Positions 24,662 to 54,780 of a DNA stretch of 64,000 nucleotides are shown here, in pieces (within the stretch, counting starts at the first letter, position 1; the number at the start of each line of letters is the position of its first letter). The position numbers and the translations under genes are program-made. The notes under the pieces are model-generated. The model searched no databases and was not told the origin of the DNA. It saw only the letters and a list, made by a program, of their open reading frames with translations. The stretch is from Acutalibacteraceae bacterium (lineage in GTDB: Bacteria; Bacillota; Clostridia; Oscillospirales; Acutalibacteraceae): contig JAZSCV010000005.1 of NCBI GenBank assembly GCA_045530855.1, forward strand, positions 3,087 to 67,086, written 5' to 3'.

Positions 24662-24696
24662 CTACACACTCCTTCAAGAAAATTTGGGATGTAGGA

Positions 24697-24870: not shown

Positions 24871-24880
24871 CCAGTGCTAA

Positions 24881-25645: not shown

Positions 25646-25710
25646 ATTATCACCTTAAATCATACGACGCAAAAAACTATATTTTTTTGCAAATTCAGTT
25701 AATAAAAAAC

Positions 25711-26052: not shown

Positions 26053-26135
26053 TATATTGCACCTTCTTTAAACTATTTCGTAAACTTGAAATCATCAAAT
26101 GTTTCTAAGATTTGATTATAAACATAATAAAAAAT

Positions 26136-26257
26136 CAGGAGGCGATTCTGTGATTAGACGATTTTCCACCAAAAATCGCCCCTGATTTTAAACTTTGAAA
26201 CAGCTAAAAAACCTTGATTTTAAAGGGATTACGGTTCAATCATAGAACCGTCCCCTG
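26136..26257. repeat. Island repeat copy R3 (122 bp, diverged hairpin arms)
   Basis: caggaggcgatt...aatcgcccctg replaces caggggacggtt...aaccgacccctg. The 3' part gggattacggttcaatcatagaaccgtcccctg is conserved. Confidence 0.9.
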
Positions 26258-26275
26258 TCCTGTCTGAAAATTGGT

Positions 26276-39652: not shown

Positions 39653-40726
39653 ATGAAAAAACTTATATCTGTTATTCTCGCATTAATGCTCATAATATCA
39701 CTTGTTCCTGTAGCAAGTGCCGCTGAATACAACGGCTTTGTGTACAAGAAAAACTCTGTCGGAAACTATGTTATTATGGGATTTACAGATTATTCCGCAA
39801 AAGCTGTCAAGATTCCTGAAAAAATCAAAGGAATCAAGGTTACCGCTGTTGGCAGAGGTGCTTTCCAGCAAATGAACAACATTACTTCAGTTGTGATACC
39901 CTCAACTGTAAGTGTGATTTCCTCAATGTCATTTTATGGTTGTCAGAATCTTACATCCGTAACCTTAAGTGATGCCGTTACGTCTATAGGCTCAAAAGCT
40001 TTTGGTATGTGCACAAAGCTTAAAGGTATAAACCTTAAAAAGGTACAGACTGTTGGAGAGCATGCCTTTTTTGGTTGCAAATCTCTTAAAACTCTTAAAT
40101 GTGGTACTGCTTTAAAAGTTATTGGTGCATATGCTTTTGAAAATTGCTCTGCATTAGACACACTCACGCAGTCCTCTGCTCTTATTTATATTGGTAGCTA
40201 TGCATTTTCAGGATGTTCTTCTATTGCATCTTTATCATTACCTAAAAGCCTTACTTATATCGGAAACAGCGCATTCAAAAACTGTACCGCACTTAAAACG
40301 TTGAAACTCGGCTCAGGTGCAATGGATATTGATGCATACGCTTTTGAAAACTGTACATCTCTCACTGCTGTTACTATTCCTAAAACTGTTAAATCAATAG
40401 GCAGATACGCTTTTGCATTAAGAGAAGCAAACTCCACTAAATTTACACACAAAGTAAAATTGACATGTAGCCGTTATGCCCCGGGTATGGCATATGCAAA
40501 AATGCATAATGTTACTGTTTATGTAAATGAGCTTAATAAAACAATTACATGCTTTGGCGACATCAATGGTAACCAAAAAGCTGACACCAACGACGGACTT
40601 CGTCTTCTTCGTATTGCCGCCTCTATGGATAACACTATTTCAGGTGAAAAGCTTTTCCTTTGTGACATTAACTGCAACGGGAAAATCGATGTTGGCGATG
40701 CAAACTATGTATTGCTTAATTCTTAA
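39653..40726 (+). CDS. BspA-type leucine-rich-repeat surface protein with C-terminal dockerin
   Basis: 357 aa. Signal peptide, about 8 repeats of the pattern I(G/S)xxAFxxCxxLxxV/I, and C-terminal dockerin GDINGNQKADTNDG...CDINCNGKIDVGDA. Confidence 0.8.
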   Translation: MKKLISVILALMLIISLVPVASAAEYNGFVYKKNSVGNYVIMGFTDYSAKAVKIPEKIKGIKVTAVGRGAFQQMNNITSVVIPSTVSVISSMSFYGCQNLTSVTLSDAVTSIGSKAFGMCTKLKGINLKKVQTVGEHAFFGCKSLKTLKCGTALKVIGAYAFENCSALDTLTQSSALIYIGSYAFSGCSSIASLSLPKSLTYIGNSAFKNCTALKTLKLGSGAMDIDAYAFENCTSLTAVTIPKTVKSIGRYAFALREANSTKFTHKVKLTCSRYAPGMAYAKMHNVTVYVNELNKTITCFGDINGNQKADTNDGLRLLRIAASMDNTISGEKLFLCDINCNGKIDVGDANYVLLNS

Positions 40727-41400
40727 ACTTTTTTCTCAACAATAAACCCATTAAACCCTGCTTTTTGTAACAGTTTAAGCTGTTTTTCTGCATTACTTCT
40801 GTTACTGAAAGCACCTGTTTGCACAGCATACAACGTTCCGTTTTTTGACGGAGCGTTGTTTTTTTCTGCAGGCAACTTTACTCCGTAATAATTACAAACA
40901 CCTTTTGCGATCGCCTCACCTATAGCGGTTGTGTTTTTTATAATGAAATCTGAACCTTGTTTTGTATCGTGAAATTCGCATTCACAATACACGGCAAGGG
41001 CAGATGTACTGTTACACTCGTAAAAATCCGGCTTCGCAATTAATCGTTCTGCACTTTCACCCGGTGTAAGAGGACTAAGACTGTCAAAAACCGCCTGACC
41101 GGCTTTTGCCCTTTCTCCGGTTACTGAATACAACAAAATTTGCGTACCGCCTGTTACATTATGCTTTGCGGTAGCATTAGTATGAATTGCAATGTGCATA
41201 TCTGCTCGAAAATGATTACTCTCTCTTACTCTTTCGTACATATCATTATTGTATGTACATTTAACCTGAAAGCCTGATTTTTCGAGATATTCTACACACG
41301 CCTTTGCAATTTTGTGGCATTGCTCTTTTTCATTTGTGTTACCTGTTGCATAAACATTGCCACTTTGGTTACTTGGCGAAATATATATTTTCTTACTCAG
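40723..41400 (-). CDS. Endolysin: N-acetylmuramoyl-L-alanine amidase (Amidase_3-type) with C-terminal SPOR domain; no canonical start codon
   Basis: The conserved N-terminus KKIYISPSNQSGNVYATG...ADMHIAIHTNA lies upstream of the track's first Met (41241). The frame opens after TGA at 41409-41407 and contains no ATG/GTG/TTG before 41241. CTG at 41400 lies 9 nt after AAGGCGGTG. SPOR: YAVQTGAFSNRSNAEKQLKLLQKAGFNGFIV. Confidence 0.7.
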   Translation of the reverse strand: MSKKIYISPSNQSGNVYATGNTNEKEQCHKIAKACVEYLEKSGFQVKCTYNNDMYERVRESNHFRADMHIAIHTNATAKHNVTGGTQILLYSVTGERAKAGQAVFDSLSPLTPGESAERLIAKPDFYECNSTSALAVYCECEFHDTKQGSDFIIKNTTAIGEAIAKGVCNYYGVKLPAEKNNAPSKNGTLYAVQTGAFSNRSNAEKQLKLLQKAGFNGFIVEKKV

Positions 41401-41692
41401 AGTATGTCACCGCCTTAGAATCATTCTCATTACTGTAATAAGTCATTGCCCTGTCACTATCAGATATGCCTGTGGTAGTAGGGTCAACCACAACACCAAT
41501 TACTGCTAAAACATTTACTAATATACCGCTCAACTCCAATATTTCATTTTCTGACACAGCAGGAAAAACATCTGCAAGCGCCAGAAGTCTGTATACAAAC
41601 GATACCGTCAAAGTTATTGCACTTATAAGGAATGCTTTATTTTTTAATCTTGCTTTAATATTTATTTTCAAATTATCATCTCCTACAACCAT
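41393..41692 (-). CDS. Holin, phi-LC3 family-like
   Basis: 99 aa. RLKNKAFLISAI..., two TM helices and VVDPTTTGISDSDRAMTY, the hallmark of phiLC3-type holins. Confidence 0.7.
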   Translation of the reverse strand: MVVGDDNLKINIKARLKNKAFLISAITLTVSFVYRLLALADVFPAVSENEILELSGILVNVLAVIGVVVDPTTTGISDSDRAMTYYSNENDSKAVTYSE

Positions 41693-42003
41693 TAAATACG
41701 ATGTGACTCTTCCGAAACCAATTCTTCTATGAGCTGGTGATATTTAAGCTTGATCTCACCATTACCGCCCAGATTCACATATTTATCGCCGGCTTTAACT
41801 CTTTCGCTCAAAGGCATATATGGTGACATTATTTTCAACTGCATAATAGACATATAATTATCAAAAGAATGTTCACTTTGCTGATCTACCCATTTCTCCC
41901 ATTTGCGTATAAATTTGTATATTTTAACTGCCGTTGCAATAATAATTCCCAAAGCAGTAAACAAAGAGGAAATTAAAATTATTTTTTCAATATATCCGAG
42001 CAA
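41692..42003 (-). CDS. Small membrane protein of the lysis cassette (holin/antiholin-like)
   Basis: 103 aa with an N-terminal TM helix. Positioned between the tail fibre and the holin. Confidence 0.45.
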   Translation of the reverse strand: MLGYIEKIILISSLFTALGIIIATAVKIYKFIRKWEKWVDQQSEHSFDNYMSIMQLKIMSPYMPLSERVKAGDKYVNLGGNGEIKLKYHQLIEELVSEESHRI

Positions 42004-42015
42004 AAATCCACCGCC

Positions 42016-44121
42016 TTAACCTATTATTGCTTTTTGTGGCTCGAAATAGAGCGTGCCCTTGAAGGTGTCAAACCATTTACTGACTACCATTGCAATTCGT
42101 TTTACACCCTCTTTATTAGGGTGAATACCATCTGTTGAGAAAGCACCATCGGTATCGTTAAAATTATACGAATTAAAACCACACTCATTAAGGTCAACAA
42201 AAGGCAACCCGAAATATTCGGCAATTTCCTTTGTTGCAACTGCATACTCTTTGAGCTGATGTAATTCCTCAGGATCAGGCGCATAGTTACCCATAGCATT
42301 AAGGAACATTCCCAACAACACGATTACTGTATCAGGCTTTGCAGTTAAAATCTTATCAATTATGTAAGCATAAGCACCTTTAAAGGTTTCAATGTTTTTA
42401 TTAATGATATCCTCGTCTGTACCTATAGGGATACTGAATATGTAGTCATTTGCACCGCCAAGTATTGTAACAATATCAGGCGATTCTGCAACAAGTGCAT
42501 TTAATCTGTCATCGTTACAAAATGCCTTTTCTGTATTACTTGATTTATAGGCAACGGTGCTGTAGCCTACACCCATTTTGATGTGTGTACCTATATCATA
42601 CCTTTCGGTAATGTAATCCTGCCAAAGCTTTTCTCCATTTACAAAATCAACACCAACGCCGAAAGTGATACTGTCTCCATAGGAAACCCATTTAATATCA
42701 CGCAGGCTTCGGTCAACAACACCGATATCCTTAAATGTCAGAGAGTGTTTGCCGTCAAATGTTCCGTTACCGATTTCAACGGCTTTCTCAATAAACCGAG
42801 ATTTGTTTTTACCAAGCTGAAATCTGCCACCAACATTCACTTCGTTAATTGCAACATATTTATCATTTGTTGTTGGTTTAAAAACATATTTGTCCTTATT
42901 AAAATCCGAACCATACACTATTGAGTTAACCTTGAAATCTTCGTCGACAAACAACAACATATCTGTCTCATCATAGGCATAATAAAGCTCGGGAATTGAC
43001 ACCACATACTCAACATTTGCCTGCAGAGGATATATACCATTCGCCCAGGCATTATTGTTTCTGTTTACGGCGACTAAATTACCATCCGTGTCCGCTTCGT
43101 ACTTTAATATTTGATTACTGTTAAGCTGTGCAGATGTAAATTTACTTGCATTAGGAATTGACTTATCACTTGTTTCTAAAATTCTTTCGCTTACAAGTGT
43201 TACGCAAGGTGCATCTGCCCCTCTTTCTGTGTTCAGTACCACATACTTTGCATTTTCAGGCATAGGGAATATGCCACCTAACACCTGTGGTGCAGACGAA
43301 GCACCAAAGTTTTTTATAGAAACAAAATTTTGGTCTAATATACAAATCATTGAGCCTGATACAGCAGTTGTAATTGTATAGCCCGAAATCTGCAATCTGT
43401 CACTGGGGTTAACCTCGAAGAAATAACAATCAAGAGTATCAACATTGGACATAAGACCCGATGTATCCTTGTTATACCATACACCAATTTTATGTGCAGG
43501 TAAAACAGTAGGCAAAGTAAGAGTAGAATCCTCTTGTGCAATGGTATTAAGAAGGTTTGTATATTTCGTTTTCGGTACTTCACTTCGTTTAGCCTCGTTT
43601 GCTTTAAATTCAGCATTTCTTGCAAACTCACTTGATTCAAAGGTTCTTGCTCTGTAGGCTTCGTTCTGATTAAAGGTCTTTACCCTTTCAGATTCCGATA
43701 ACTGCCTATAGGCTTCGGCTTCACTTACAGAGGTTTCCAACTCAGTATAACAATCTGCTATCATTTTGCAATATTGCTCATATTGAGATATATCATACAC
43801 TGCCGCATCATTAATTTCCTCAGAATACGAACCATCAGAAACAAAAAAAGCTGTTGGTTTCGGGGAATACATAAGCTCTATGCCATCGTCATTTTCTTTA
43901 TATGCGTACACACCTAATGTTGCTGTTCCCTTTTTCAGAGTGGGAATTACACATTGGTTATTCACTAATGGTACAGGAATATTATTAAATGAAGCTGTAA
44001 CAGTTAAATTTTTAAAACAATCGGGCAAATTAAATTTACATTTATTAACACTTACTTCACCCTCGTTTACAACTGAAGTTTCTGTTATAACAATTTTCTC
44101 TTTTGTAACTTCAACAACCAT
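42016..44121 (-). CDS. Tail fibre/receptor-binding protein with C-terminal SGNH/GDSL hydrolase domain
   Basis: 701 aa. GDSL block I WVSYGDSITFG, block III-like GGAND, block V DGIHPN. Confidence 0.7.
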   Translation of the reverse strand: MVVEVTKEKIVITETSVVNEGEVSVNKCKFNLPDCFKNLTVTASFNNIPVPLVNNQCVIPTLKKGTATLGVYAYKENDDGIELMYSPKPTAFFVSDGSYSEEINDAAVYDISQYEQYCKMIADCYTELETSVSEAEAYRQLSESERVKTFNQNEAYRARTFESSEFARNAEFKANEAKRSEVPKTKYTNLLNTIAQEDSTLTLPTVLPAHKIGVWYNKDTSGLMSNVDTLDCYFFEVNPSDRLQISGYTITTAVSGSMICILDQNFVSIKNFGASSAPQVLGGIFPMPENAKYVVLNTERGADAPCVTLVSERILETSDKSIPNASKFTSAQLNSNQILKYEADTDGNLVAVNRNNNAWANGIYPLQANVEYVVSIPELYYAYDETDMLLFVDEDFKVNSIVYGSDFNKDKYVFKPTTNDKYVAINEVNVGGRFQLGKNKSRFIEKAVEIGNGTFDGKHSLTFKDIGVVDRSLRDIKWVSYGDSITFGVGVDFVNGEKLWQDYITERYDIGTHIKMGVGYSTVAYKSSNTEKAFCNDDRLNALVAESPDIVTILGGANDYIFSIPIGTDEDIINKNIETFKGAYAYIIDKILTAKPDTVIVLLGMFLNAMGNYAPDPEELHQLKEYAVATKEIAEYFGLPFVDLNECGFNSYNFNDTDGAFSTDGIHPNKEGVKRIAMVVSKWFDTFKGTLYFEPQKAIIG

Positions 44122-44132
44122 AAGCTTCTCCT

Positions 44133-45464
44133 TTATCCATATTTTTTATACATAGCTTCAAGATATAGTTTGTAATCACCTTTATACAAATTCTTATAAA
44201 CACTACTTGATGCAAATTCGTTTTCCGTCAAAATTGTAGCAACACCTGTTCTTTGATAAAATTCTTTATAGGTTACCGGCGGTGAAACAGTTGTTTTATT
44301 TTCAGATGATGACTTAGAACTGCCCGATGAACTCGATGAGCTTGATTTTTGACTGCTTGAATTAGCTTTCTGAACGGATAAATTATATTTTCTATCCTGA
44401 TTTGCCTGATCCCTTAATGCTTCTTGTTTACGGAATTCAAGTTGACGATCAAACTCCTCTCTATCTAACACATCCTTCTGCTTATTGAAATCAAGCTGAC
44501 GGTTGAATTCATCTCTGTCCAGCATATCCTGTCGTTCTTTAAATGCAAAATCCCTATCACTTTCCCAGCTTTCTAGATCTTTAGCAAATAGTTCAAATTC
44601 TCTGTCAGACATAGAAGCAATTTTTTTCAAAAGATAGTCGCCATCCTTATAATACTGCTGTACTAAATCTATATATTTTCCATAATCATCACCATCAAGA
44701 GAACGAAGAAGCTGAGCATCATCAAAAAGCTTTTCACCATTATATTTATATTCTTCAAATGCTCTGTCCCTTAAATCCATTGCTATGTCATTCAGCTGTT
44801 CAAGGCTTTGCTGATACGCCTGACTACCTGCCACAGTAGCATATGAGTTACCATATCCCCCTGTCAAAGCGGCGGATTCACCAATAGTATCCATCATAGC
44901 CTTTTTGCCATTAAGTGTATACATCTCCCTGTACTGTTCATACATAGGGTCAGACGACATACTGTAATCAAATTCTCCTCTGTTAAGAATCTCATTAAGT
45001 ACACTATCTATTTCATCCGAGTATCTACTTTTGTATTCCTCAGGCTTCTGATTTTCCCAATTTTCAAGATTTTCTTCAGATGCAAGAAGCTCCTTGCTTT
45101 TTTGATATGTAGGCTTTGACGCTAAATTATAATTTTCACTTTTATTTTCCTGTACAGGCGAAGTACTTGTTGATGGCTTTTGAGTAGTAGTACCGGACTT
45201 CAACGGCGGTGTGCCTATTGATGGCTTTGGATTAGTGGCTCCGGATTTTACCGGCGGTGTACCTATTGATGTTTTTTGAGTAGTAGTAACGGATTTCACC
45301 GGTGGTGTGCCTATTGACTGTTTTGGGGTTACAGAACTATTGGCGTTTGTGCCTGACTTCCCTGATTTCACCCTCCCTAACAATTCTTCTTGCTGTTTTT
45401 TTGTTTTTTTATCTTCCTTGGATAAACCGTAAGAAGTAGTTTTTTTCGAAGATATCTTAATCAC
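44133..45464 (-). CDS. Virion-associated protein with Pro-rich and charged repeats
   Basis: 443 aa. Three 16-aa repeats (SIGTPPVKS...), a DREEF(N/D)RQL(D/E)F repeat and a poly-Ser tract. The GTG start abuts GAAAGG, so the start is uncertain. Confidence 0.55.
   Translation of the reverse strand: MIKISSKKTTSYGLSKEDKKTKKQQEELLGRVKSGKSGTNANSSVTPKQSIGTPPVKSVTTTQKTSIGTPPVKSGATNPKPSIGTPPLKSGTTTQKPSTSTSPVQENKSENYNLASKPTYQKSKELLASEENLENWENQKPEEYKSRYSDEIDSVLNEILNRGEFDYSMSSDPMYEQYREMYTLNGKKAMMDTIGESAALTGGYGNSYATVAGSQAYQQSLEQLNDIAMDLRDRAFEEYKYNGEKLFDDAQLLRSLDGDDYGKYIDLVQQYYKDGDYLLKKIASMSDREFELFAKDLESWESDRDFAFKERQDMLDRDEFNRQLDFNKQKDVLDREEFDRQLEFRKQEALRDQANQDRKYNLSVQKANSSSQKSSSSSSSGSSKSSSENKTTVSPPVTYKEFYQRTGVATILTENEFASSSVYKNLYKGDYKLYLEAMYKKYG
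45174..45326 (-). repeat. In-frame 48-nt tandem repeat (x3) inside the 443-aa virion protein gene
   Basis: Encodes (K/T)xSIGTPP(V/L)KS(V/G)xT... three times. Confidence 0.75.
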
Positions 45465-45535
45465 CCTTTCTGAAATATTGGATTTTAATCACAGTATTTT
45501 CAGCATATAAAAAATCATCTGTTTGCGTAACAAGC

Positions 45536-45682
45536 TCACATTGAGTTTTGGGTTTTATTACCCAATGCAACAGACAGCGATTCGTTAAGCTCGCGCAAAT
45601 AATTTTCAAGAAAAACAAATTTTTCTTCAGAAGAAAATTTATCAGAACTCAAATTAGGTATTGCAACATTAAGGTCATACAT
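45536..45682 (-). CDS. Small ORF (48 aa) translationally coupled to the 587-aa gene
   Basis: Not in the track (<60 aa). ATG at 45682 overlaps the upstream stop (gaATGTATGAcc). Sequence MYDLNVAIPNLSSDKFSSEEKFVFLENYLRELNESLSVALGNKTQNSM. Confidence 0.35.
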   Translation of the reverse strand: MYDLNVAIPNLSSDKFSSEEKFVFLENYLRELNESLSVALGNKTQNSM

Positions 45683-47438
45683 TCAAATCACTTCCTGCTT
45701 CTGTTTTTCGTGAAATATTTATAATTTTCACATTACCTGTGCCTGTTATTTTCATACGCAGATGATCACAACGCGGAGTTATAAAAGGCAACACGAGAGA
45801 GCCTGTGTGCGAAACCTTAACAGACATTTGCTCAATCCATTTACCATCACTATTAAATTGAAATAAAACCTTTAGTGTTGCGCCCTTTTCTCCAATAGCT
45901 TTAATTATTACACTTGAATAATACTTATTTTCCGGCAACTCAAGTCCCCACAAGCCACTTTCAACGCACCACTCCACATTCTCCTCAATACGATAGCTTG
46001 TAAGCTGTCCGTTAAATTCACCATATTTATTTTCGCCATCAATAATACCAAGTCTGTGTGTATTCCTTTCATTGGCAATAAAATACAGATTCAGATTGTT
46101 TTCAGCAAACTCGAACACATCAAAAATACCTTCCCTATGCCACAACGACTTATCCTCGTCGTACACAAAAAGCTCTCGCTCATTTCGGGGATTTGTCATA
46201 CAAATGTAATATTTGTTTTTTAACACACCTGCTACTGCATCACGGTAGTGAATTCGCCCTAAAGCTGATGATATTTCCACAGGTATACCGCCATTGTATG
46301 TGCATACCCCTGTAGGTGACTTGTAGTAAAGTGTATCATTAAGGCAACACAGGGACTTACTGCTACCATTCTGAACACCCCTTATATATGATGTTGTGAT
46401 TGTGTAAGGCGGATTCTGACCATATATTTTATGAACACAATTTTCTTTAAAAAACAGCACATAACCTCTGTAACCTATTACTCCTGTGAATGGTCCATCA
46501 CTACCAACCGATGCACCATAACTATCTGTCGAAACACCCATGTATGAATAAAAATTTGTTGGATCACCTAACTTAGATGCAAAAATTTCGTTGGTTTTTG
46601 ATGAACAACCCCATATTCTGTTACCACTTTCGCACACAAAATCCATATCCGGGATTTTTCTTTTAACAGAAACTTCTCCCTCTATCGTTACATTTTGGTC
46701 AATCATTCCCGGAACAACTATGTAATCCTCTGATTTGTCATATATTATGGATGAACCATTCAAACCGATTTTTTCAAAACCTTTAAGAAAAACAGAATCA
46801 TATTTATTGAATTTCGAGCCTATTCCGGAACTGGATATACGAACAAAATTATTTATTATTTCCACCCAGGTTTTAGTATCTGAGGAATATTGTTTAAGAG
46901 TATGAGGCACTGAGGATGTATCCACCCACAAATCACCATGCTCAGGCACCTCCGGTGGTTTTTTATTAACTGTATAATTCTCATACAAATCACCATCACC
47001 ACGGCAAAGGGTACATTCAGCCTTTTCACTCCAGAAGAAAGCATCCAATTGACCATAATCATTAAAATCCGCTGTATTTATATATACCTTATCAGGAAAC
47101 ACAACAAGTTTTGTACCCATTGAAACAAAGCTTCTGTTTTTAACATCACTCGGGAAATAAAGATCAGTCACAGGACCTCCGTCATAATAAAGTGTACCGT
47201 TGTTTATGTAACAGATTTTTGTTTTCGAATGCAAATCACACAGCATTTTTCCTGTTACATTAAAATAACCTCTCTTTTTTCGTGGTGCCATAACAGGATA
47301 ATGATCTGAACTCATATTTTCTTCGTAATGCATTGCATTCTCATCAATAATAAGATTGTTTTCGTACCCGCTGAAATAAGAAACAAGTTTACGACTTTTT
47401 TCCGTGTTATAAAGGATCGGCTTATACATATAAATCAT
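45675..47438 (-). CDS. Large virion structural protein (tail/nozzle-like)
   Basis: 587 aa. Positioned between the connector-like gene and the tail fibre module. No motif recognised. Confidence 0.5.
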   Translation of the reverse strand: MIYMYKPILYNTEKSRKLVSYFSGYENNLIIDENAMHYEENMSSDHYPVMAPRKKRGYFNVTGKMLCDLHSKTKICYINNGTLYYDGGPVTDLYFPSDVKNRSFVSMGTKLVVFPDKVYINTADFNDYGQLDAFFWSEKAECTLCRGDGDLYENYTVNKKPPEVPEHGDLWVDTSSVPHTLKQYSSDTKTWVEIINNFVRISSSGIGSKFNKYDSVFLKGFEKIGLNGSSIIYDKSEDYIVVPGMIDQNVTIEGEVSVKRKIPDMDFVCESGNRIWGCSSKTNEIFASKLGDPTNFYSYMGVSTDSYGASVGSDGPFTGVIGYRGYVLFFKENCVHKIYGQNPPYTITTSYIRGVQNGSSKSLCCLNDTLYYKSPTGVCTYNGGIPVEISSALGRIHYRDAVAGVLKNKYYICMTNPRNERELFVYDEDKSLWHREGIFDVFEFAENNLNLYFIANERNTHRLGIIDGENKYGEFNGQLTSYRIEENVEWCVESGLWGLELPENKYYSSVIIKAIGEKGATLKVLFQFNSDGKWIEQMSVKVSHTGSLVLPFITPRCDHLRMKITGTGNVKIINISRKTEAGSDLNV

Positions 47439-47799
47439 CCACCTTTATTTTTGTTTTTTTCGCAACCTTGGTTTTGCGATTTATAGCATCACCCATTTCT
47501 TTATAAATGCGATTAAATAGGGTGGCAGAATTGTTGTATCTGGTTATTTCACCATTAAAGTAATCAAGCTTCATATTCATATAGTATGAATATATCTCAG
47601 AAAACTCCGATGGAGCTTTGAGATTTGTTTCGTGTGGTGTAGTTGTTGTATATCCCTCAAATTTCTCACCATTGCGTATTTCAAGGTATTCTGAGCTTAT
47701 CTTTTTATCAAGCTCAGAAATCCATTGAATCTTCTGCTCCATAGAAATACTGTTACTACGGTGAACATCAAAGCTCTCTATTGCTTTTATTAATGTCAT
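47422..47799 (-). CDS. Putative head-tail connector/adaptor protein
   Basis: 125 aa. Call rests on position only; overlaps the downstream gene by 17 nt. Confidence 0.4.
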   Translation of the reverse strand: MTLIKAIESFDVHRSNSISMEQKIQWISELDKKISSEYLEIRNGEKFEGYTTTTPHETNLKAPSEFSEIYSYYMNMKLDYFNGEITRYNNSATLFNRIYKEMGDAINRKTKVAKKTKIKVDDLYV

Positions 47800-47810
47800 A
47801 TAACTCCCCC

Positions 47811-48038
47811 TTAAAGAGAGATATTCGCATCAATATACTCTGCAGAAACAGCTGCCATTTCTTCACTATTTCTGATAACCTCTGCAAATTTTTCAGGAAT
47901 TTCCACATTTTTACCTGTCTGAACAAGAATTCTTTCACCGTTCACAGCAATAAATCTTTCTGTATCGTTCCTTGACTGCCTTGGAATGAAAACGTTTACA
48001 AGCTTTTCTTTTGTCTGATTAGTTTTATTATTTGCCAT
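47811..48038 (-). CDS. Small head-associated protein
   Basis: I prefer the ATG at 48038 (MANNKTNQ..., RBS AAAGGAGA 6 nt upstream) over the track's TTG at 48056. Confidence 0.45.
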   Translation of the reverse strand: MANNKTNQTKEKLVNVFIPRQSRNDTERFIAVNGERILVQTGKNVEIPEKFAEVIRNSEEMAAVSAEYIDANISL

Positions 48039-48059
48039 TTTTATTCTCCTTTTCAATTC

Positions 48060-48085
48060 CGGTAGAGTGGTTTCCCACTCTACCG
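48060..48085. other. Perfect 11-bp stem hairpin in the capsid-downstream intergenic region
   Basis: cggtagagtgg-tttc-ccactctaccg. The T-rich tail (ttttgcttt) is on the plus strand only, antisense to the structural operon. Confidence 0.6.
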
Positions 48086-48108
48086 TTTTGCTTTAATATT
48101 TGTTTTGA

Positions 48109-48154
48109 GCTGTATGAGATACTGCGAGCGAGATAAAACAAGTTATCCGCCCAA
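48109..48154. repeat. 46-bp direct repeat, copy A
   Basis: gctgtatgagatactgcgagcgagataaaacaagttatccgcccaa. Confidence 0.9.
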
Positions 48155-48213
48155 CTTACCACTCAGTAAGCTAACTGAATATTGGGATGAAGAACGCCGT
48201 TTTATTGAGCGAC

Positions 48214-48259
48214 GCTGTATGAGATACTGCGAGCGAGATAAAACAAGTTATTCGCCCAA
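48214..48259. repeat. 46-bp direct repeat, copy B (1 mismatch, 105-bp period)
   Basis: gctgtatgagatactgcgagcgagataaaacaagttattcgcccaa. Ends 3 nt before the capsid stop codon. Confidence 0.9.
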
Positions 48260-48262
48260 TAT

Positions 48263-49288
48263 TCAGTTAGATTTAGCTGTGGAGCTGAAAGCTGAGCCTG
48301 ACTCAATTCTAATCATATATTCTTCAACGAGTCTTTTCGCAGTTTTAAGTCCCTTCCAACCAACAGATGAACGCTGATTAAGCGGGTCGTTGCCGTAGCC
48401 CTTCTGCTTTACAATGTGCTCAATACCGCCGCCGTTTACACTTGTAACACCATAGGCATCGGCACCAATAACAAGGGTTGCAAATACAGCACAATTGTCT
48501 GCACCTGCATTCCAAATTTTTGCTTCCGTGCTTTCAACAAAGCGAACACCGCCAAGGCAACCGATTTCACCTGTAAGCATATTTTCAGGAGTTGCGTACT
48601 TCTGGACCTCCATCCACTGATTACCTGCCTCCTGCATAAGGTCGTAGGCAACATACGGATGAATAATACCCACATAGTAGCCATCGATTTTAGGGGCATT
48701 CATAGCCTTAAGCTCTGCGGCAGCCTTGAAAACATCCTTAACACGGAGAAGTGATGTTTTATCAATAGCACTTCTTGAGGTAACCTCTGTTTCTGTGCCA
48801 TCTGCTGCTACCTTAGGGCAGTAAAGAACATTAGTACCACCAACAATTTCATTTCTTACAATTGTATCCATTGTAAGACCTGCCTGTGCAGAAAGCTGCT
48901 TTGTAGCTTCAACAATTGTGTTATCAACTGCAGTAAGCTCAAGAAGGTCTGTCTGTTCAATGTAATCACCATACTGTTCAACAGATGCGGTAATTGCTGT
49001 TACATTAAGCTTATTTCCTGATGGTGTTACACCTTCTGTAAGTGGTGTAAGCGCCTTAGGAAGTGATGAAAACTTTCTGAATTCGATAATCTTACCACCA
49101 TTTTTAGGAATATCGCGCTTCTGACCAAACTGATCGTGCACAAGATATGGTGATGCAAGAGTAATAAGTGTTTTATCATAAAAGGTTTTCATTTCTGCAC
49201 TAAGATTATTACCTGATGCGTTTGATGTTGTTGCGTTTACTGTGTCACCTGCTGCAAAAAGCTGAAGATTTAAAATATAATCTGTCAT
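48263..49288 (-). CDS. Major capsid protein (HK97-fold, N4-gp56-like family) with Prp-type N-terminal propeptide
   Basis: 341 aa. N-terminus MTDYILNLQLF|AAGD. Follows the scaffold gene. Confidence 0.75.
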   Translation of the reverse strand: MTDYILNLQLFAAGDTVNATTSNASGNNLSAEMKTFYDKTLITLASPYLVHDQFGQKRDIPKNGGKIIEFRKFSSLPKALTPLTEGVTPSGNKLNVTAITASVEQYGDYIEQTDLLELTAVDNTIVEATKQLSAQAGLTMDTIVRNEIVGGTNVLYCPKVAADGTETEVTSRSAIDKTSLLRVKDVFKAAAELKAMNAPKIDGYYVGIIHPYVAYDLMQEAGNQWMEVQKYATPENMLTGEIGCLGGVRFVESTEAKIWNAGADNCAVFATLVIGADAYGVTSVNGGGIEHIVKQKGYGNDPLNQRSSVGWKGLKTAKRLVEEYMIRIESGSAFSSTAKSN

Positions 49289-49309
49289 ATTTTCTCCTTT
49301 CAGATGGTG

Positions 49310-50065: not shown

Positions 50066-50161
50066 AAAAAATCCTTTCTTTGTTGCAACATTCATCGTCT
50101 TTCCGAAGTGTCATGATATATATTAAAAACCGTTTGGCCATAACGGTTTTTCACACAAGAA

Positions 50162-50482
50162 TCAGTTAAATCTCACATACTTAGGGTAACTATCCTCAAG
50201 CATCAATAAACCCTTGATGCAGGTATCAAAAATACCCTGCACCCGATTTTTTGAAAAATCGAAATATTCTATTTCGAGATGCATATAACCATCTCTTACG
50301 ATGTTTCTGATAAGCTTCACATTACCCGAAGCCTCCTCATCCAGCATACAATTCAACAAAGTGTATGCCAGGGTGGATATGCCTGCACAAACAATATCAG
50401 AACCGCTTTGTGCATATGTGCTATGTCCTTCTATAGTGACAAAAAGCTTATCATAATATTCTCTGTAATAAACAGTTGTCAC
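50162..50482 (-). CDS. prp: Prp-like (DUF464) cysteine protease
   Basis: 106 aa. IEGHSTYAQSGSDIVCAGISTLAY carries the conserved His...Cys dyad context (GH...DIVCA.(V/I)S). Confidence 0.75.
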   Translation of the reverse strand: MTTVYYREYYDKLFVTIEGHSTYAQSGSDIVCAGISTLAYTLLNCMLDEEASGNVKLIRNIVRDGYMHLEIEYFDFSKNRVQGIFDTCIKGLLMLEDSYPKYVRFN

Positions 50483-52134
50483 TGCAGGCTCACCTCTGCG
50501 CTTAGCTTTGAGGATAAAATACTTTTACCCTCAAAATCCATCATACTGATTGCAAGCAATGCCTGTGTTCTGTTTTCCGGGTTAAACATACCCGCACCAT
50601 ACAACTGTAAAGCCAGCTCATTCTGACTAATTTTTGAAAATGGACTTGCTTTTTCGGCAGAAACCTTTACATCGAATATAGGCTTTCGCAAACTGATTTC
50701 TGCACCGAAATCACCACTGTATTTTTTTATCAGCAAGCCTGTATTGTCATATGTAACAAACTGTTGTTCTCCGTTATCACCAATAATTCTGAAAAATCTT
50801 GGTTCATCGTAAAACTGTCGTATTAACTCAATAGCAAGACTATTAAGCTCTGCAAAGGCTCTGTACCCACCTTTTACCATATCGCGGGTAAGCTTTGAGC
50901 CTGCTTCCTGCAAAGCGGCAATTGCACTTGCCGCTGTAACTCCGCTTGAAACACCACCCTGAGAAAAATCCCTGTTGCCGCTCGTTTCCTTAAGCTCGTC
51001 AATTTTGTTGTTCAAAACCCCAAGGTACGTACCCGGAACATTAGAAAACTTAATTTCTCTTATGCTGTCCTCACCAAGATTACTGCCTGAAACATGCACA
51101 AAATTATTGGACCAATCTGCAAACTCTTCCTCATTTACAGCACCGGAAGAGTTAATAAAATATCGTGGTGTTGCTGCCATTGTTGCATTTTTTACCAATG
51201 AATTGGAAAGAATATCAATCTGCTTCTGAGTATTCTTCATAATATCTATGTACCCGAAGCCACACGGCGTACCTTCTTCAACAAAAAGTGTATCGAAAAC
51301 AAATGGATACTTACCGTGGTCGTAAAAGCCTCTTGAAATATATGCAGAATCATTTTCAGAAGCGTACAAAAGCTCACCATTACAGATTTTGCAGTAATGC
51401 ACCTGCTCAACACCATTTTTGATTACTTTATAATAATGATCTATTACGGCACTTTTTTCTGTTGTATCAACATTATCATCATAAACATACTTTGCAATTT
51501 CAACATCTGATGAACCTAATTTGCCTGAAAGCTGTGGATACAGAGAAACAAGTGTATCATTATCCATAAGCTCAACATGGAACAGATTTTTACTTTTCTG
51601 AATATTCTTAATACCCGGCTCCCAGAAAAGGTTAAGCACATCAATCTGTTTGATTTCAATATCACCCAAGCCATTATTTTTTATAGGGTTCCAGAATATT
51701 CCGTAAACTGCAGTACCGGCTTTAAGCTTGTACCACCAAGCATCATTATAGATCTTGTCAAAGCCGTTTCTTTCAAATACAACAGGCAAGATCTGAGAAA
51801 GTACCTCTGCGGTTTTCTTATCACTTTCTTCACGAGGCAAGCATGCAACCGTAGGATAATTATCCATTGCATCCGCATGCTTGTTTGCAATAGAGTTAAA
51901 AAGCCATGCCGATGCATTCTGATTTTTGCTTTCAGGACTTAATTGCTCCCAATGGCGCATTTTGAACCACTGCTCATTATCAACAATTCTGTTTTCAAGA
52001 TTTGTTTTTGCTGATTTGTATTTTTTTAAAGTTCTGAGGCTCTTTTCTACCTCATCTTTTCCTATCACACCAAAGGTTCCTATTAGTGTGGCAGGTTTTA
52101 TTTTTTCATAGTTATTTAGATTTTCTTTTTCCAT
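50479..52134 (-). CDS. Phage portal protein
   Basis: 551 aa. Immediately downstream of TerL, with size and position typical of a portal. Confidence 0.7.
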   Translation of the reverse strand: MEKENLNNYEKIKPATLIGTFGVIGKDEVEKSLRTLKKYKSAKTNLENRIVDNEQWFKMRHWEQLSPESKNQNASAWLFNSIANKHADAMDNYPTVACLPREESDKKTAEVLSQILPVVFERNGFDKIYNDAWWYKLKAGTAVYGIFWNPIKNNGLGDIEIKQIDVLNLFWEPGIKNIQKSKNLFHVELMDNDTLVSLYPQLSGKLGSSDVEIAKYVYDDNVDTTEKSAVIDHYYKVIKNGVEQVHYCKICNGELLYASENDSAYISRGFYDHGKYPFVFDTLFVEEGTPCGFGYIDIMKNTQKQIDILSNSLVKNATMAATPRYFINSSGAVNEEEFADWSNNFVHVSGSNLGEDSIREIKFSNVPGTYLGVLNNKIDELKETSGNRDFSQGGVSSGVTAASAIAALQEAGSKLTRDMVKGGYRAFAELNSLAIELIRQFYDEPRFFRIIGDNGEQQFVTYDNTGLLIKKYSGDFGAEISLRKPIFDVKVSAEKASPFSKISQNELALQLYGAGMFNPENRTQALLAISMMDFEGKSILSSKLSAEVSLQ

Positions 52135-52149
52135 TTTCTCTTTCCTTTA

Positions 52150-53511
52150 CTAAATTCTTTTTATTAAATCCAACGGATCATCATATATTTTTTCTTCTCT
52201 TTTTTTGTATGTAGGTGATATTGGTCTTGCCATACACATATACCTCATTTCGTCAGCGATATGATCCTCTCCCGTTGTATCTAAATCCTCAGGATTGGTT
52301 GAACTGAATTTCAATTCCGGTACTGTCCTTATAAAGCCTCTGCAGTTATTAAACACATACATCATAGGAATCCCCTGCTCGTCAAAGGCAAGTCTGTAGT
52401 GCACCTGCATCCACCCGGGAATACGCTTATTATCACCTTTTGTGAAAAATATTCCGTTTCTGTCTGCTGATTCAATGATTGCCTCACCTCTTGATGCATC
52501 CCATATAGATGGGTCAGCCACACCTAAAATCCTTTTATTTTTTAACCACCTGTGTTGTTTTTCTATGTTTGCTATTTCAGAAAATATTTTTTCAGGAGGC
52601 CATTTGACACCTTCGTTTGCTGTTTTAGTACAACCGTACAACTCTAAAATTCTGTACAGCCTGCCATCGTAATCCACAGCCCACCAGGCGCAGGAAAACG
52701 GCTTTGCATAACCAAAGTCAAAGGACCTGTAAATTACCCAATCATTCGGAATTTCAAAAGGCTCAATAACATGTGTGTTTATACCATCCCTGTAGTGCTC
52801 CGGATTATCTCTGAACTCTTCAAAAAATTGTCCGTCAAAAATATCCCAGTTACCAAAGCGGTGAGCCTGCCTTAATTTTTCGGGAAGTGCATCAAGCACC
52901 TTCACATATTCGGGATTAGTACTCAGAAGTACAGTATTATCATCTATTGTTGCAGGAATAAATATGTAGTCATTGGGATCCTCACCCGTTTCATAGCGAC
53001 CTTTAACAAACAGCCTTTTAAACCAGTTATGCCCCACTCCGCCTGGATTCCCCGTAAAATACATACGAGGTTTAAAATCACTTCTTGTTGTTCTGTTACA
53101 GGTCATCAAAAACTGAATCTGGGAAAAGGTAAAATGCGTACATTCTTCAACACCAATAACATCATATTCCTGACCCTGATACTGATAAATATCGTTTTCG
53201 GTATCACAATAACCAAGCCTGATTCTTGATCCGTTTGGGAATATAAATGCCCTTTCATCTCTTTTATAGCGGGCAATTCCGTTTAACTGAGCAAGCATAG
53301 GCAAAAGATGGTTTTCTCTTAGTTCAGGAAGAGTTTTTCGTAAAAGCAATAATTTAAGGTTATTGTACTTAAGAGCAAGCAGAATAAATTTTGTTCTTAA
53401 TGCCCAGGATTTCCCGCCACCTCTTGCACCGCCATAGCCGATAAATCGTTGATTACACTTAAAAAACTGTTCTTGCTTTGCGTTCGGTTGAGAAATGAGA
53501 AGTTCCTTCAT
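52150..53511 (-). CDS. terL: Terminase large subunit
   Basis: 453 aa. Walker A GYGGARGGGKSW, Walker B-like YDVIGVEE, C-terminal nuclease-like region. Confidence 0.85.
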   Translation of the reverse strand: MKELLISQPNAKQEQFFKCNQRFIGYGGARGGGKSWALRTKFILLALKYNNLKLLLLRKTLPELRENHLLPMLAQLNGIARYKRDERAFIFPNGSRIRLGYCDTENDIYQYQGQEYDVIGVEECTHFTFSQIQFLMTCNRTTRSDFKPRMYFTGNPGGVGHNWFKRLFVKGRYETGEDPNDYIFIPATIDDNTVLLSTNPEYVKVLDALPEKLRQAHRFGNWDIFDGQFFEEFRDNPEHYRDGINTHVIEPFEIPNDWVIYRSFDFGYAKPFSCAWWAVDYDGRLYRILELYGCTKTANEGVKWPPEKIFSEIANIEKQHRWLKNKRILGVADPSIWDASRGEAIIESADRNGIFFTKGDNKRIPGWMQVHYRLAFDEQGIPMMYVFNNCRGFIRTVPELKFSSTNPEDLDTTGEDHIADEMRYMCMARPISPTYKKREEKIYDDPLDLIKRI

Positions 53512-53774
53512 TGGCTTAACTCCTCAATTTGTTTTTCGAACCTTATTACAACACCATCAGCAATCTGCGGTGTTGCGTCGCAGTCCTCTAATAAGCCATA
53601 CAATTCTCTCAATGCACCCACACTTTCCTTTAAGAACTTAGCATCCAATTCAGGGTTGCCTGTTGTTTTGAAAGTCTTTCTTGCTTTTTTTACAATATCG
53701 TCTACAAGAGCACTCATATTCTCTGCAGCAGAGGAAACTCTTTTGAGCTTATCCTGCTTTCTTACCTCACTCAA
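53508..53774 (-). CDS. Small protein coupled to TerL (possible small terminase or accessory protein)
   Basis: 88 aa. TTG start overlaps the upstream stop, and there is an ATGA overlap with terL. Confidence 0.35.
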   Translation of the reverse strand: MSEVRKQDKLKRVSSAAENMSALVDDIVKKARKTFKTTGNPELDAKFLKESVGALRELYGLLEDCDATPQIADGVVIRFEKQIEELSQ

Positions 53775-53998
53775 ACTCGCAAGCCCCTTTCATAAAGAAC
53801 GGAAACAGCTCTGTGATGCATACATTTCTTGCCGCTGTTAATGCAACAAACAGAAAATTCGTATTTTTTCTTTTCATCATTAGAATTAAATCGATGTGTA
53901 CTGCTTGTGTTATCCAATACACCTTCACAGCTAATGAATTTTTCTCCTTCTTTAAGATAAAATGGACACTCAATTATTGATTCTATGGTTTTTGACAT
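53771..53998 (-). CDS. Cys/His-rich small protein, first gene of the structural operon (possible late regulator)
   Basis: 75 aa. RBS AAAGGAGAG 5 nt upstream. Residues C11, C24, CC61-62, C69, HH71-72. Confidence 0.5.
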   Translation of the reverse strand: MSKTIESIIECPFYLKEGEKFISCEGVLDNTSSTHRFNSNDEKKKYEFSVCCINSGKKCMHHRAVSVLYERGLRV

Positions 53999-54029
53999 AT
54001 TTTTCTCTCCTTTTGTACTATAATTGGTA

Positions 54030-54058
54030 TTGACACTTTTTTATAAATAAGGTATATT
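54030..54058 (+). promoter_or_regulatory. Near-consensus sigma-A promoter facing right (XRE/ImmA transcript)
   Basis: TTGACA (54030-54035), 17 nt, TATATT (54053-54058). Confidence 0.5.
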
Positions 54059-54096
54059 ATTAGTGTAATTTGTACTGATTTCCGAACTGCAAGCAT

Positions 54097-54125
54097 ATTA
54101 TAATACGGATTTCTGTACTTTTCAA
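54097..54125 (-). promoter_or_regulatory. Near-consensus sigma-A promoter facing left (structural/lysis operon)
   Basis: The minus strand reads TTGAAA (54125-54120), 17 nt, TATAAT (54102-54097). Confidence 0.5.
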
Positions 54126-54195
54126 CCTATTTTCAGAACATTTGTTTGTTCGACATTTTTTTGTGTGAATGCACAAATATGTGGAGGTCCTCTTT

Positions 54196-54531
54196 GTGAA
54201 GATGTATGAAAAAATACAAGAATTATGCAATGAAAAGAACATAAAGGTCGCACAGCTGTGCCGCGAAACGGGTGTGCCAAAAAGTACAATATCAGAACTT
54301 AAGCAGGGCAGAACAAAAACTTTATCCACTCATAATCTAAGTAAAATTGCCCAATATTTTGGTGTTTCTCTTGACTACTTTGATGAAAGCTTTGATGACG
54401 TTGATAACCAAAAAGATGAGCTTTTTCAAAAAAGAAAAATATTATTTGATATGTCAAAAAGAGCCACCAAGGATCAGCTTGACACATTTATCGTTATGTT
54501 CAAAGCATTAATTGATCAGGAGGAAAAATGA
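54196..54531 (+). CDS. XRE-family HTH transcriptional regulator (CI/ImmR-like repressor)
   Basis: HTH IKVAQLCRETGVPKSTISELKQGRT. GTG at 54196 lies 8 nt after GGAGG; ATG at 54202 is an alternative start. Confidence 0.8.
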   Translation: MKMYEKIQELCNEKNIKVAQLCRETGVPKSTISELKQGRTKTLSTHNLSKIAQYFGVSLDYFDESFDDVDNQKDELFQKRKILFDMSKRATKDQLDTFIVMFKALIDQEEK

Positions 54532-54736
54532 ATTTACTATTTATAAGAGAAATAAAAATGCCGCTCACAATCAGGGCATTTACTATACCCGATGCAAACG
54601 GCGATTTTAATATTTATATCAATGAGGCTCTGTCGGACGATGCAAAAAAGAAATCATTAGCTCATGAAAAAAGCATATAAAACGAAATGATTTCCAAAAA
54701 GATTTATCTGTAAAGCTAATTGAAAACAACATATAA
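54528..54736 (+). pseudogene. ImmA/IrrE-like small metallopeptidase interrupted by a frameshift in an A6 run
   Basis: ATGA overlap with the XRE gene. Frame 0 stops at 54680 after ...SLAHEKSI (50 aa). The -1 frame entered at A6 (54667-54672) reads AHEKKHIKRNDF... (HEXXH) through to 54736. Confidence 0.55.
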
Positions 54737-54740
54737 AAAA

Positions 54741-54780
54741 ATGCATCCTTGAATATTTCAAGGATGCATTAATATTTTTT
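54741..54780. terminator. Bidirectional terminator at the right border of the phage-like element
   Basis: Stem atgcatccttga/tcaaggatgcat followed by taatatttttt. An A7 run precedes it. Confidence 0.7.

Follow-up and report, generated by a model that had tools for sequence, protein, structure and literature searches.

A conserved podovirus-derived particle and lysis locus of Acutalibacteraceae with the probable character of a gene transfer agent-like element

We analysed a 64,000-nt stretch of contig JAZSCV010000005.1 from an Acutalibacteraceae bacterium (hereafter the window), in which a compact set of podovirus-like genes, referred to below as the element, encodes particle and lysis functions beside a small regulatory unit. 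Open reading frames (ORFs) were listed, and all of those in the block were scanned against Pfam, PHROG and NCBIfam profiles. The minus-strand genes form a single unbroken block from position 53998 to position 40723, and the plus-strand regulators lie at 54202-54740 (Table 1). In the order of transcription, the block encodes a Cys-rich 75-aa protein, an 88-aa protein, the large terminase (TerL), the portal, a Prp protease, a protein in the scaffold position, the major capsid protein, a second 75-aa protein, a 125-aa protein, the tail nozzle, a 443-aa protein, a 701-aa SGNH protein, a 103-aa protein, a holin and an endolysin. An earlier sequence-only reading of this DNA had described the same arrangement, an uninterrupted particle and lysis block divergent from an XRE-family repressor gene, and had noted the lack of integrase, replication and recombination genes and of att-like repeats. 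Both descriptions were borne out: neither the block nor the other annotated parts of the window contain an integrase, excisionase, replication or recombination gene, and the search for att-like repeats at the borders returned just 16-nt matches at chance level. The block shows no shift in GC content relative to its flanks and has no match to an Rfam family.

Table 1. Features of the element, with positions in the 64,000-nt window
Feature	Position	Strand	Evidence and remarks
Cys-rich protein, 75 aa	53771-53998	-	First gene of late operon; CPF...CEG...C...C.H pattern
88-aa protein (p88)	53508-53774	-	Stop overlaps TerL start; position of the small terminase (TerS)
Large terminase (TerL)	52150-53511	-	Pfam Terminase_3, Terminase_6N; phrog_979, phrog_2
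Portal, P22-like, 551 aa	50479-52134	-	Pfam P22_portal, E 3e-33
Prp-type cysteine protease	50162-50482	-	Pfam Peptidase_Prp, E 3e-16; phrog_4478
Scaffolding protein (assigned from position), 261 aa	49310-50095	-	phrog_13908
Major capsid protein, HK97 fold, N4-gp56 family	48263-49288	-	TIGR04387, 273 bits (cutoff 60); Pfam Phage_capsid_4; phrog_1357
Structured intergenic leader, capsid gene to p81	48057-48262	-	206 nt; repeat family D4
p81, conserved 75-aa protein	47811-48038	-	phrog_15239; 81-aa ORF trimmed to ATG with ribosome-binding site (RBS)
Conserved virion protein, 125 aa (p125)	47422-47799	-	phrog_12105; in 60 loci
Tail nozzle, 584-587 aa, beta-propeller	45675-47438	-	AlphaFold (AF2) model and Foldseek
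c7 remnant, 48 codons	45536-45682	-	Translation MYDLNVAIPNLSSDKF... matches c7 N-terminus
p443, 443 aa, mostly alpha-helical virion protein	44133-45464	-	421 homologues
Tail fibre or receptor-binding protein, 701 aa, C-terminal SGNH/GDSL esterase	42016-44121	-	Pfam Lipase_GDSL_2, E 2e-23; PHROG tail-fibre families
Membrane protein, 103 aa, one N-terminal transmembrane helix	41692-42003	-	Hydropathy; kept beside holin in relatives
Holin (Phage_holin_1), 99 aa	41393-41692	-	PF04531, E 5e-18; phrog_297; at least 2 hydrophobic segments
Endolysin, N-acetylmuramoyl-L-alanine amidase with SPOR, 225 aa	40723-41400	-	Pfam Amidase_3, SPOR; phrog_435
Switch region	53999-54201		Face-to-face promoters and two GTAC-N8-GTAC-type palindromes; about 200 bp between p75 and XRE
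Late promoter, TTGAAA-17-TATAAT	54125-54097	-	11/12 consensus
xre promoter, TTGACA-17-TATATT	54030-54058	+	11/12 consensus
Palindromes	54104-54119 (inside late-promoter spacer), 54072-54087		GTAC-N8-GTAC-type
XRE-family repressor, 109 aa from conserved start	54202-54531	+	Pfam HTH_26, HTH_3; phrog_8/4/3; weak NCBIfam RstR; ORF readable from 54169
Mini-ImmA-like HEXXH gene, frameshifted	54528-54740	+	Weak Peptidase_M78, E 0.008; phrog_20936
Terminator-like hairpin, bidirectional	54740-54770		14-bp stem, T-runs on both strands; between regulator unit and convergent YdjC/ChbG-type gene

The element is widespread. A search with the portal protein returned more than 8000 homologues, more than 120 of them at least 76% identical and many on contigs of 100-400 kb. 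When one genome per GTDB species was scanned, at least 431 genomes contained a portal relative, and the best 80 loci were analysed. About 60 of these 80 loci carry the same element, with portals 70-82% identical (90% in one relative recovered later), in genomes labelled Acutalibacteraceae, Oscillospiraceae or unclassified Clostridia/Eubacteriales that are mostly metagenome-assembled genomes from ruminant and other animal guts; Acutalibacteraceae and unclassified Clostridia make up almost all of them. Their common gene order is p75, p88, TerL, portal, Prp, scaffold, capsid, p81, p125, nozzle, c7, c9, p443, (fibre), (holins) and lysin, headed by the oppositely oriented pair (XRE, mini-ImmA), and in the relatives as in the window all functions are contiguous in a single locus. 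The remaining 20 or so loci, in which the portal is 55-61% identical, look like true prophages, with a full TerS, many small early genes and longer portals.

The chromosomal position of the element, for which the sequence-only reading had proposed a comparison across related genomes, is conserved on both sides. On the regulator side, the flank YdjC-PGbinding-acyltransferase-(DHDPS)-ABC exporter is found in 22 species, nusG-rplK-rplA-rplJ-rplL in about 12, and an EutH-like gene with TrkA/TrkH and GH2 in 5; single cases border MutS2, RpoA, NusA, Tex, radical-SAM enzymes or an M14 peptidase. The lysis-side flank was read on five contigs retrieved via p443 homologues (L093, L094, L096, L097 and L099), and it is alike in all six copies when the window is included: a convergent LRR_5 gene, SBP_bac_3, a permease, an ABC ATPase, MFS_2, a protein of ~265 aa and GHL10. 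One of the five, L096, comes from the clade with the different (rplKAJL) right flank, yet it has the same left flank. Loci with the same type of right flank group into coherent clades in a neighbour-joining tree of TerL, portal and capsid, and the widespread YdjC flank is apparently the ancestral context. This pattern fits vertical inheritance of the locus with infrequent rearrangement of the chromosome on one side of it. No integrase was seen on the regulator side of the ~60 related loci, and wherever flanks were examined (regulator side in ~60 loci, lysis side in 6 genomes) integrase and replication genes were absent from both.

These flanks bear on the idea that the element is a helper-dependent satellite or mobile mini-phage, which would use a co-resident phage or the host for its excision and replication. 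Its small size and its own capsid and packaging genes would suit such an element, as in capsid-forming phage-inducible chromosomal islands, and a July 2026 preprint notes that single-locus candidates for gene transfer agents (GTAs) are confusable with satellites (bioRxiv 10.64898/2026.07.08.737213). We nevertheless consider a satellite very unlikely. The element contains no integrase, primase/Rep gene or att repeat, it has its own nozzle, fibre, holin and endolysin, whereas capsid-forming satellites lack tail and lysis genes, and its position is fixed across species with host genes on both flanks.

Divergence of the element was compared with that of its host neighbours. Pairwise non-synonymous divergence of the TerL, portal and capsid genes correlates with that of the YdjC and ABC exporter genes (Spearman 0.86-0.92); in the rplKAJL clade, the rplKAJ and nusG neighbours are too conserved and codon-biased for this co-divergence test. 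Ratios of non-synonymous to synonymous divergence (dN/dS, omega) were calculated by the Nei-Gojobori method (NG86) for family pairs with dS <1.5. They were 0.03-0.05 for TerL, 0.05-0.06 for the portal, 0.06 for the capsid, 0.11 for the nozzle, 0.11 for p443, 0.10 for c7 and 0.16 for c9, with an overall range of 0.03-0.17 for the element, and the same analysis of host neighbour genes gave 0.04-0.09. Between the window and its closest relative, L093, omega is 0.02-0.11 at a near-saturated dS of 0.6-2.6 for all element genes, including those for the fibre, holins and lysin. Across both comparisons, omega is 0.02-0.05 for TerL, 0.04-0.06 for the portal and 0.03-0.06 for the capsid; p81 has values of 0.04-0.085, the 103-aa protein 0.045 and the endolysin 0.06 (versus L093). 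The purifying selection that the sequence-only reading had suggested looking for is therefore present. In a separate observation, the dS of the capsid gene is 0.4-0.6, about half the value of ~1 found for TerL and portal in the same genome pairs (L017-L059), which may be a sign that codon usage is under selection in the gene with the highest expression. Such selection has been reported for alphaproteobacterial GTAs.

That the element is an ordinary defective prophage, left over when a temperate podophage recently suffered deletions in one lineage and serving no function for the host, is scarcely credible in the light of these results. True prophages related to the element do exist in Faecalibacterium, Yeguia, Massiliimalia and others, where they carry TerS, SSB, ParB_N, YopX, Rep-like and repressor genes, and the structural genes of the element are clearly derived from that phage group. 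However, the same layout is present in ~60 species at a conserved locus, with host co-divergence and with purifying selection at saturated dS, and a neutral remnant would long since have been disrupted. The earlier reading had allowed that homologues elsewhere might always carry integrase and replication modules, this copy then being a unique recent deletion derivative. The absence of both modules from ~60 species, the conserved position and the purifying selection rule out such a derivative and favour a domesticated element with the GTA- or PBSX-like architecture that had been proposed.

The tail genes specify the type of particle. The AF2 model of the nozzle is an all-beta propeller (pLDDT 80, pTM 0.76), and in a Foldseek search of the PDB its top 21 matches are all podovirus nozzle or tail-complex proteins (E 1e-13 to 1e-8), among them T7 gp12 (6r21), PhiM1 (8vbx), P22 gp10 (8u10 and 8eap) and Sf6 gp8 (7sg7). 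On the strength of these structural matches, the PHROG label 'internal virion protein' for this 587-aa protein was rejected. Pfam and PHROG scans detected no tape-measure, tube or sheath gene in the block, and this absence together with the nozzle fold establishes a short-tailed design. The sequence-only reading had reached the same conclusion from the missing genes and had listed three connector or tail-like proteins, of which the 587-aa member can now be named as the nozzle. From its position, the 125-aa protein is probably the head-tail adaptor. Searches of the PDB with the sequences of the nozzle, p443 and the capsid protein gave nothing useful, and the AF2 model of p443 was poor (pLDDT 59) and unsuited to a structure search. 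Many p443 homologues are named 'peptidoglycan-binding protein', and relatives have an N-terminal PG_binding_1/3 domain, which was placed by alignment. The N-terminal linker region of p443 in the window contains three tandem 48-nt coding repeats (45153-45326; 74-82% identical).

Canonical copies of the element have two further genes between the nozzle and p443, namely c7 (320 aa, a coiled coil with a beta-rich C-terminus) and c9 (~587 aa, DUF859), and the order nozzle-c7-c9-p443 is found in about 50 loci. In the window copy, most of c7 and all of c9 are deleted, and p443 is altered alongside this deletion. The same kind of c7 remnant is present in L093, whose portal is 90% identical to that of the window and which also lacks c9; c9 is absent in L007 and L039 as well. 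Because the c7 remnant and the loss of c9 are common to the window and L093 and are accompanied by low omega, the reduced tail form has itself been long maintained by selection. A 53-aa ORF at 45457-45618 was rejected as a spurious, out-of-frame artefact, the true feature there being the c7 remnant. Further along the operon, the 701-aa fibre shares 69% identity with its positional counterpart in L093 and 51% with that in L094.

Variation at the tail tip could also reflect a PBSX-type killer particle, in which DNA-filled, short-tailed particles would harm competitors without productive DNA delivery, selection then acting on a bacteriocin-like function or on public goods set free by lysis. No part of the element varies more than its tail-tip and fibre genes (SGNH proteins 35-66% identical; c9 pN 0.43), as is the case for strain-targeting receptor binders, the c7/c9 module has been swapped or lost in some lineages, and several virion proteins have peptidoglycan-binding or esterase domains. 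The XRE repressor divergent from the late genes follows the same logic as in PBSX, and the authors who described FpGTA, a podovirus-like GTA considered below, leave this option open for their system (PMC12946183). Two points make a killer particle unlikely here. A complete and constrained packaging machine has been kept, which pure killing does not need (although PBSX keeps its own), and podovirus-type particles have no apparatus, contractile or puncturing, that is known to kill unless DNA is ejected.

The packaging genes contain a candidate for a small terminase of unusual form. Residues 5-61 of p88 align to residues 68-138 of the prophage TerS family c20 in a weak hhalign match (probability 43%, E 2.5e-4). 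The aligned part of c20 lies after its N-terminal helix-turn-helix (HTH), with c20 residues 1-66 matching TerS PHROGs, and no HTH or DNA-binding domain is detectable in p88. This comparison is suggestive of a small terminase without the N-terminal HTH DNA-binding domain, as in FpGTA and in RcGTA of Alphaproteobacteria. The pattern of the Cys-rich 75-aa protein is kept in 37 loci, including a position directly upstream of TerS in true prophage relatives, and the protein probably binds zinc. Element portals are ~550 aa long. Prophage-type relatives (L061-L082) have portals of 580-810 aa that extend 40-85 residues further at the C-terminal end and 0-57 further at the N-terminal end; the missing barrel-like extension could be related to a smaller DNA load.

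Among the head genes, Prp presumably processes the capsid protein or the scaffold, the scaffold gene lies between the portal/Prp and capsid genes in 60 loci, and the capsid protein is 83-96% identical across species. The leader that follows the capsid gene contains a 46-nt direct repeat (48109-48154 and 48214-48259, 98% identical), folds as RNA at -67 kcal/mol (z -6.8 versus shuffled sequences) and has an 11-bp GC-rich hairpin right before the next RBS, with no Rfam match. It may serve to set capsid stoichiometry, either as an attenuator or by stabilising the RNA.

Regulation of the element appears to depend on one switch. Both promoters and both palindromes of the switch region are conserved in the 16 loci that were aligned, which backs the single repressor switch of the earlier reading; the simplest interpretation is that XRE would bind these operators and occlude the late promoter. 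The XRE repressor is 57-90% identical across 36 loci. The mini-ImmA gene is intact in 30 loci, where it encodes 67-70 aa with an HEKEH motif. In the window, a 1-nt change at a poly-A run (about 54667-54675) causes a frameshift inside this motif, so that the 50-aa ORF ends ...AHEKSI (stop) and the remainder (HIKRNDFQKDLSVKLIE) lies in another frame. An 89-aa ORF at 54060-54329 was rejected as an antisense or out-of-frame artefact. In the clade with the rplKAJL flank (L016-L041, L059), Prp has been lost and XRE/mini-ImmA are replaced by an oppositely oriented DUF6291 gene, which is a change of regulatory system within the domesticated element.

At the other end of the operon, the frame of the endolysin is complete, being open from 41400, and it aligns end to end with orthologues of 223-224 aa. 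Its start codon (41398-41400) is CTG in the window, ATG in L093 and TTG in L094, and in all three the holin stop overlaps the endolysin start by 8 nt. The 103-aa membrane protein may be a holin- or antiholin-like lysis accessory. According to the sequence-only reading, all ORFs looked intact except the ImmA-like gene and the endolysin start. The mini-ImmA frameshift and the altered start codon stand; the endolysin frame itself is sound, and the loss of c7 and c9 had been missed. Together, the frameshift and the CTG start may lower or abolish inducibility of the window copy.

The window copy might accordingly be seen as a decaying member of an otherwise functional family, drifting to loss and making no working particles. 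Three lesions would fit such decay: the mini-ImmA frameshift in HEXXH, the ATG-to-CTG change of the endolysin, and the c7/c9 deletion with its altered p443. We judge this to be improbable, however. The c7/c9 deletion is common to L093, and all remaining genes have since accumulated a dS of about 1-2 at omega 0.02-0.11; L007 and L039 are also without c9. With TTG in the same place in L094, and with the beginning of the endolysin gene overlapping the end of the holin gene, a coupled CTG start may still work. The frameshift falls in a homopolymer of a sequence that is probably metagenome-assembled and could be an assembly error, and no further ORF is interrupted.

Based on these results, we think it probable that the locus is a GTA-like element or 'viriform' of Acutalibacteraceae, a particle and lysis module that stems from a podovirus, has been domesticated and is inherited vertically. 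As between a GTA-like particle factory and a dying prophage, the former is the most likely. In the working that we propose, the XRE repressor would bind the two conserved palindromes and silence the 14-kb late operon in the majority of cells. A small minority of cells would escape this repression, in intact copies perhaps via the co-transcribed mini-ImmA HEXXH protein. The late operon would then supply an N4-gp56-type capsid, built from portal, Prp, scaffold and capsid protein, and a short tail of adaptor, nozzle, p443 and SGNH fibre, to which canonical copies would add c7 and c9. TerL and its HTH-less, TerS-like 88-aa partner would fill the heads with available DNA, which we propose to be the chromosome because the element neither excises nor replicates. 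Finally, the holin and amidase would lyse the producer cell, so that non-specific packaging would be followed by particle release and, presumably, by delivery of DNA to recipients.

Several observations weigh against this interpretation. With its frameshifted mini-ImmA, CTG endolysin start and lack of c7 and c9, the window copy may be less active than canonical copies. The TerS assignment of p88 depends on the weak profile match given above. In the comparison of the window with L093, the dS of element genes is often above that of the neighbouring host MFS_2 and ABC ATPase genes, which could indicate some allele exchange besides strict vertical descent. In addition, selection alone does not prove a host-beneficial function, because true phages are also under purifying selection.

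A broader proposal, which we offer tentatively and hold to be rather less than an even chance, is that an ancient podovirus-type GTA, contained in one locus and still governed by an XRE/mini-ImmA switch, is present throughout the Acutalibacteraceae, a family abundant in the guts of ruminants and humans; lineage-specific remodelling of its tail tip (c7/c9 loss, SGNH swaps) and of its regulator (DUF6291 replacement) would tune the partners in DNA exchange. If this is true, living intermediates would make it possible, for the first time in any GTA, to retrace every stage by which a temperate podophage became a domesticated element. If the element is active, it would be a major path, not accounted for until now, by which chromosomal genes move through the gut communities of ruminants and humans, in a family that is largely uncultured, and would offer a compact single-operon system in which to study the transition from temperate podophage to GTA. 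Its gene order, conserved flanks and conserved operator sequence are markers that make it an easily recognised candidate locus.

The surroundings of the element in the window are ordinary host genes, including an amino-acid ABC transporter, MFS_2, spoIIGA/sigE, a 2-oxoacid acyltransferase, DHDPS and an ABC exporter. At the left border, the stop codons of the endolysin and of a convergent LRR_5 gene share 4 nt (40723-40726). The LRR_5 gene (39653-40726, plus strand) encodes a secreted protein of 357 aa; the overlap and the leucine-rich repeats had been seen earlier, although the dockerin domain also ascribed to this protein was not found by Pfam. An LRR_5 (BspA-type) gene is likewise convergent on the endolysin in L094, L096, L097 and L099, even where the other flank is different, and its product may be more than a neighbour and functionally connected with the element, perhaps as a surface receptor or in immunity. 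At the right border, the terminator next to a ChbG-type gene was confirmed as the hairpin listed in Table 1. Elsewhere in the window, a region of low GC content (23177-26779, about 31-33%) contains four ORFs of 167-254 aa without a Pfam match, beside an esterase gene and spoIIGA-sigE. Two host cell-wall proteins near the element contain PG_binding_1: an 862-aa dockerin/fn3/SH3_3 protein (30980-33568, minus strand) and a 444-aa membrane protein (55769-57103, minus strand), the latter a right-flank neighbour that is kept in 19 species.

Among cultured viruses, the nearest relatives are the 40-kb Page-group podophages of Bacillus megaterium (Page, Pony and Pascal; Pagevirus-type) and Paenibacillus phage API480, whose capsid proteins are 36-38% identical to that of the element. 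Clostridia prophages (Faecalibacterium, Yeguia, Massiliimalia) are closer, with portals 55-61% identical and the order TerS-TerL-portal-Prp-scaffold-capsid-adaptor-nozzle-c7-c9-p443. Page-type phages and prophages differ in having a full TerS with its HTH, SSB, ParB_N and Rep-like genes and portals with 40-85 additional C-terminal residues, none of which is found in the element. GenBank contigs named 'Bacteriophage sp.' from human faeces have portals 44-54% identical, but these are unannotated fragments of structural modules and are uninformative on integrase content. A Faecalibacterium locus (L069) and a cluster of ten contigs (L083-L092) were considered as FpGTA and rejected, since they carry genuine prophage genes (SSB, ParB_N, YopX, Rep-like, HTH repressors); among the 2064 representatives of the portal search, the clusters of ten short-portal representatives contain no Faecalibacterium names. 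The contigs L083-L092 instead represent a widespread temperate podophage of Faecalibacterium related to the element, with a portal cluster of 724 members at 90% identity. In the ten contigs checked, a PBECR3/ART-PolyVal protein of ~3070 aa follows directly after the tail genes; this ejected-type protein is absent from the element.

In its repressor logic, the element is closest to PBSX. PBSX (and PBSZ/PBSY) of Bacillus subtilis is fixed, non-replicating and non-excising, and its particles package host DNA. Like the element, it has one late operon with holin and amidase genes at its distal end and, divergent from it, the gene for an Xre-family repressor. It differs in its size of ~28 kb and in its long contractile tail with sheath, tube and tape measure, whereas the element has a nozzle-type short tail and none of these genes; the capsid, portal and terminase lineages of the two are unrelated. 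RcGTA of Alphaproteobacteria resembles the element in having a domesticated head, tail and packaging cluster of ~14-15 kb that is vertically inherited and under purifying selection. Its TerS lacks DNA-binding specificity and its particles are released by lysis, as may hold for the element too. RcGTA is siphovirus-like, however, has auxiliary loci elsewhere, is controlled by the host regulators CtrA and GafA and by quorum sensing instead of a phage-type repressor, and has no sequence relationship to the element.

To our knowledge, only a handful of GTAs are known, and before January 2026 none was podovirus-like or from gut commensals. GTA particles characteristically package near-random pieces of host DNA, shorter than the coding length of the element that encodes them, and deliver them to recipient cells. 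The closest known system is FpGTA of Faecalibacterium prausnitzii, the first podovirus-like GTA (Borodovich et al., Nat Commun, January 2026; PMC12946183). Its operon I (10.5 kb) encodes TerL, portal, Prp, an 'N4-gp56 family' capsid, a nozzle matched to P22 gp10 (PDB 8eap), a coiled-coil protein and a TerS in which no DNA-binding domain is obvious, and its operon II (5.5 kb, ~125 kb away) encodes fibres, an SGNH/GDSL protein, holin and endolysin (PMC12946183). FpGTA has no replication genes, and its 40-nm particles contain about 8.5-9 kb of host DNA, with support from proteomics (PMC12946183). Both FpGTA and the element are podovirus-derived elements of gut Oscillospirales that lack replication and integration genes, are near-ubiquitous in their host lineage and have the same functional parts list, the comparison being one of annotation and structure. 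They differ in that FpGTA is divided into two operons and the element is a single locus, in that no repressor switch is described for FpGTA whereas the element has a divergent XRE with mini-ImmA, and in that the host of FpGTA belongs to Ruminococcaceae and that of the element to Acutalibacteraceae. FpGTA is further set apart by its experimental support from particles, packaged DNA and proteomics.

The July 2026 preprint describes single-locus GTA candidates of 12.7-14 kb in murine gut Clostridia (Butyricicoccaceae QXXE01 and Coprocola) and connects them with the bacterial DNA that virus-like particles contain; DNA of Acutalibacteraceae accounts for ~10% of one transductome (bioRxiv 10.64898/2026.07.08.737213). 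Like the element, these candidates combine terminase, capsid, holin and endolysin genes with a lack of integration and replication genes; they differ in belonging to other families and in being defined by annotation filters. The available text reports no cross-species analysis of their conservation or selection. In the literature that pairs 'gene transfer agent' with Acutalibacteraceae, we found no description of the present element, the family being named in that preprint only for its share of one transductome. Both studies report that Oscillospirales DNA is abundantly packaged, in a GTA-like manner, into virus-like particles of the gut, and both could name the responsible loci in few taxa only (PMC12946183; bioRxiv 10.64898/2026.07.08.737213). 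The view of the sequence-only reading that a podovirus-type GTA in Clostridia would be unusual has thus been overtaken by FpGTA and by the similar single-locus candidates described in the preprint. What is new here is a single-locus, switch-controlled member of a kind recognised only in 2026; it stands out by being conserved across the family and by the living intermediates between it and true prophages.

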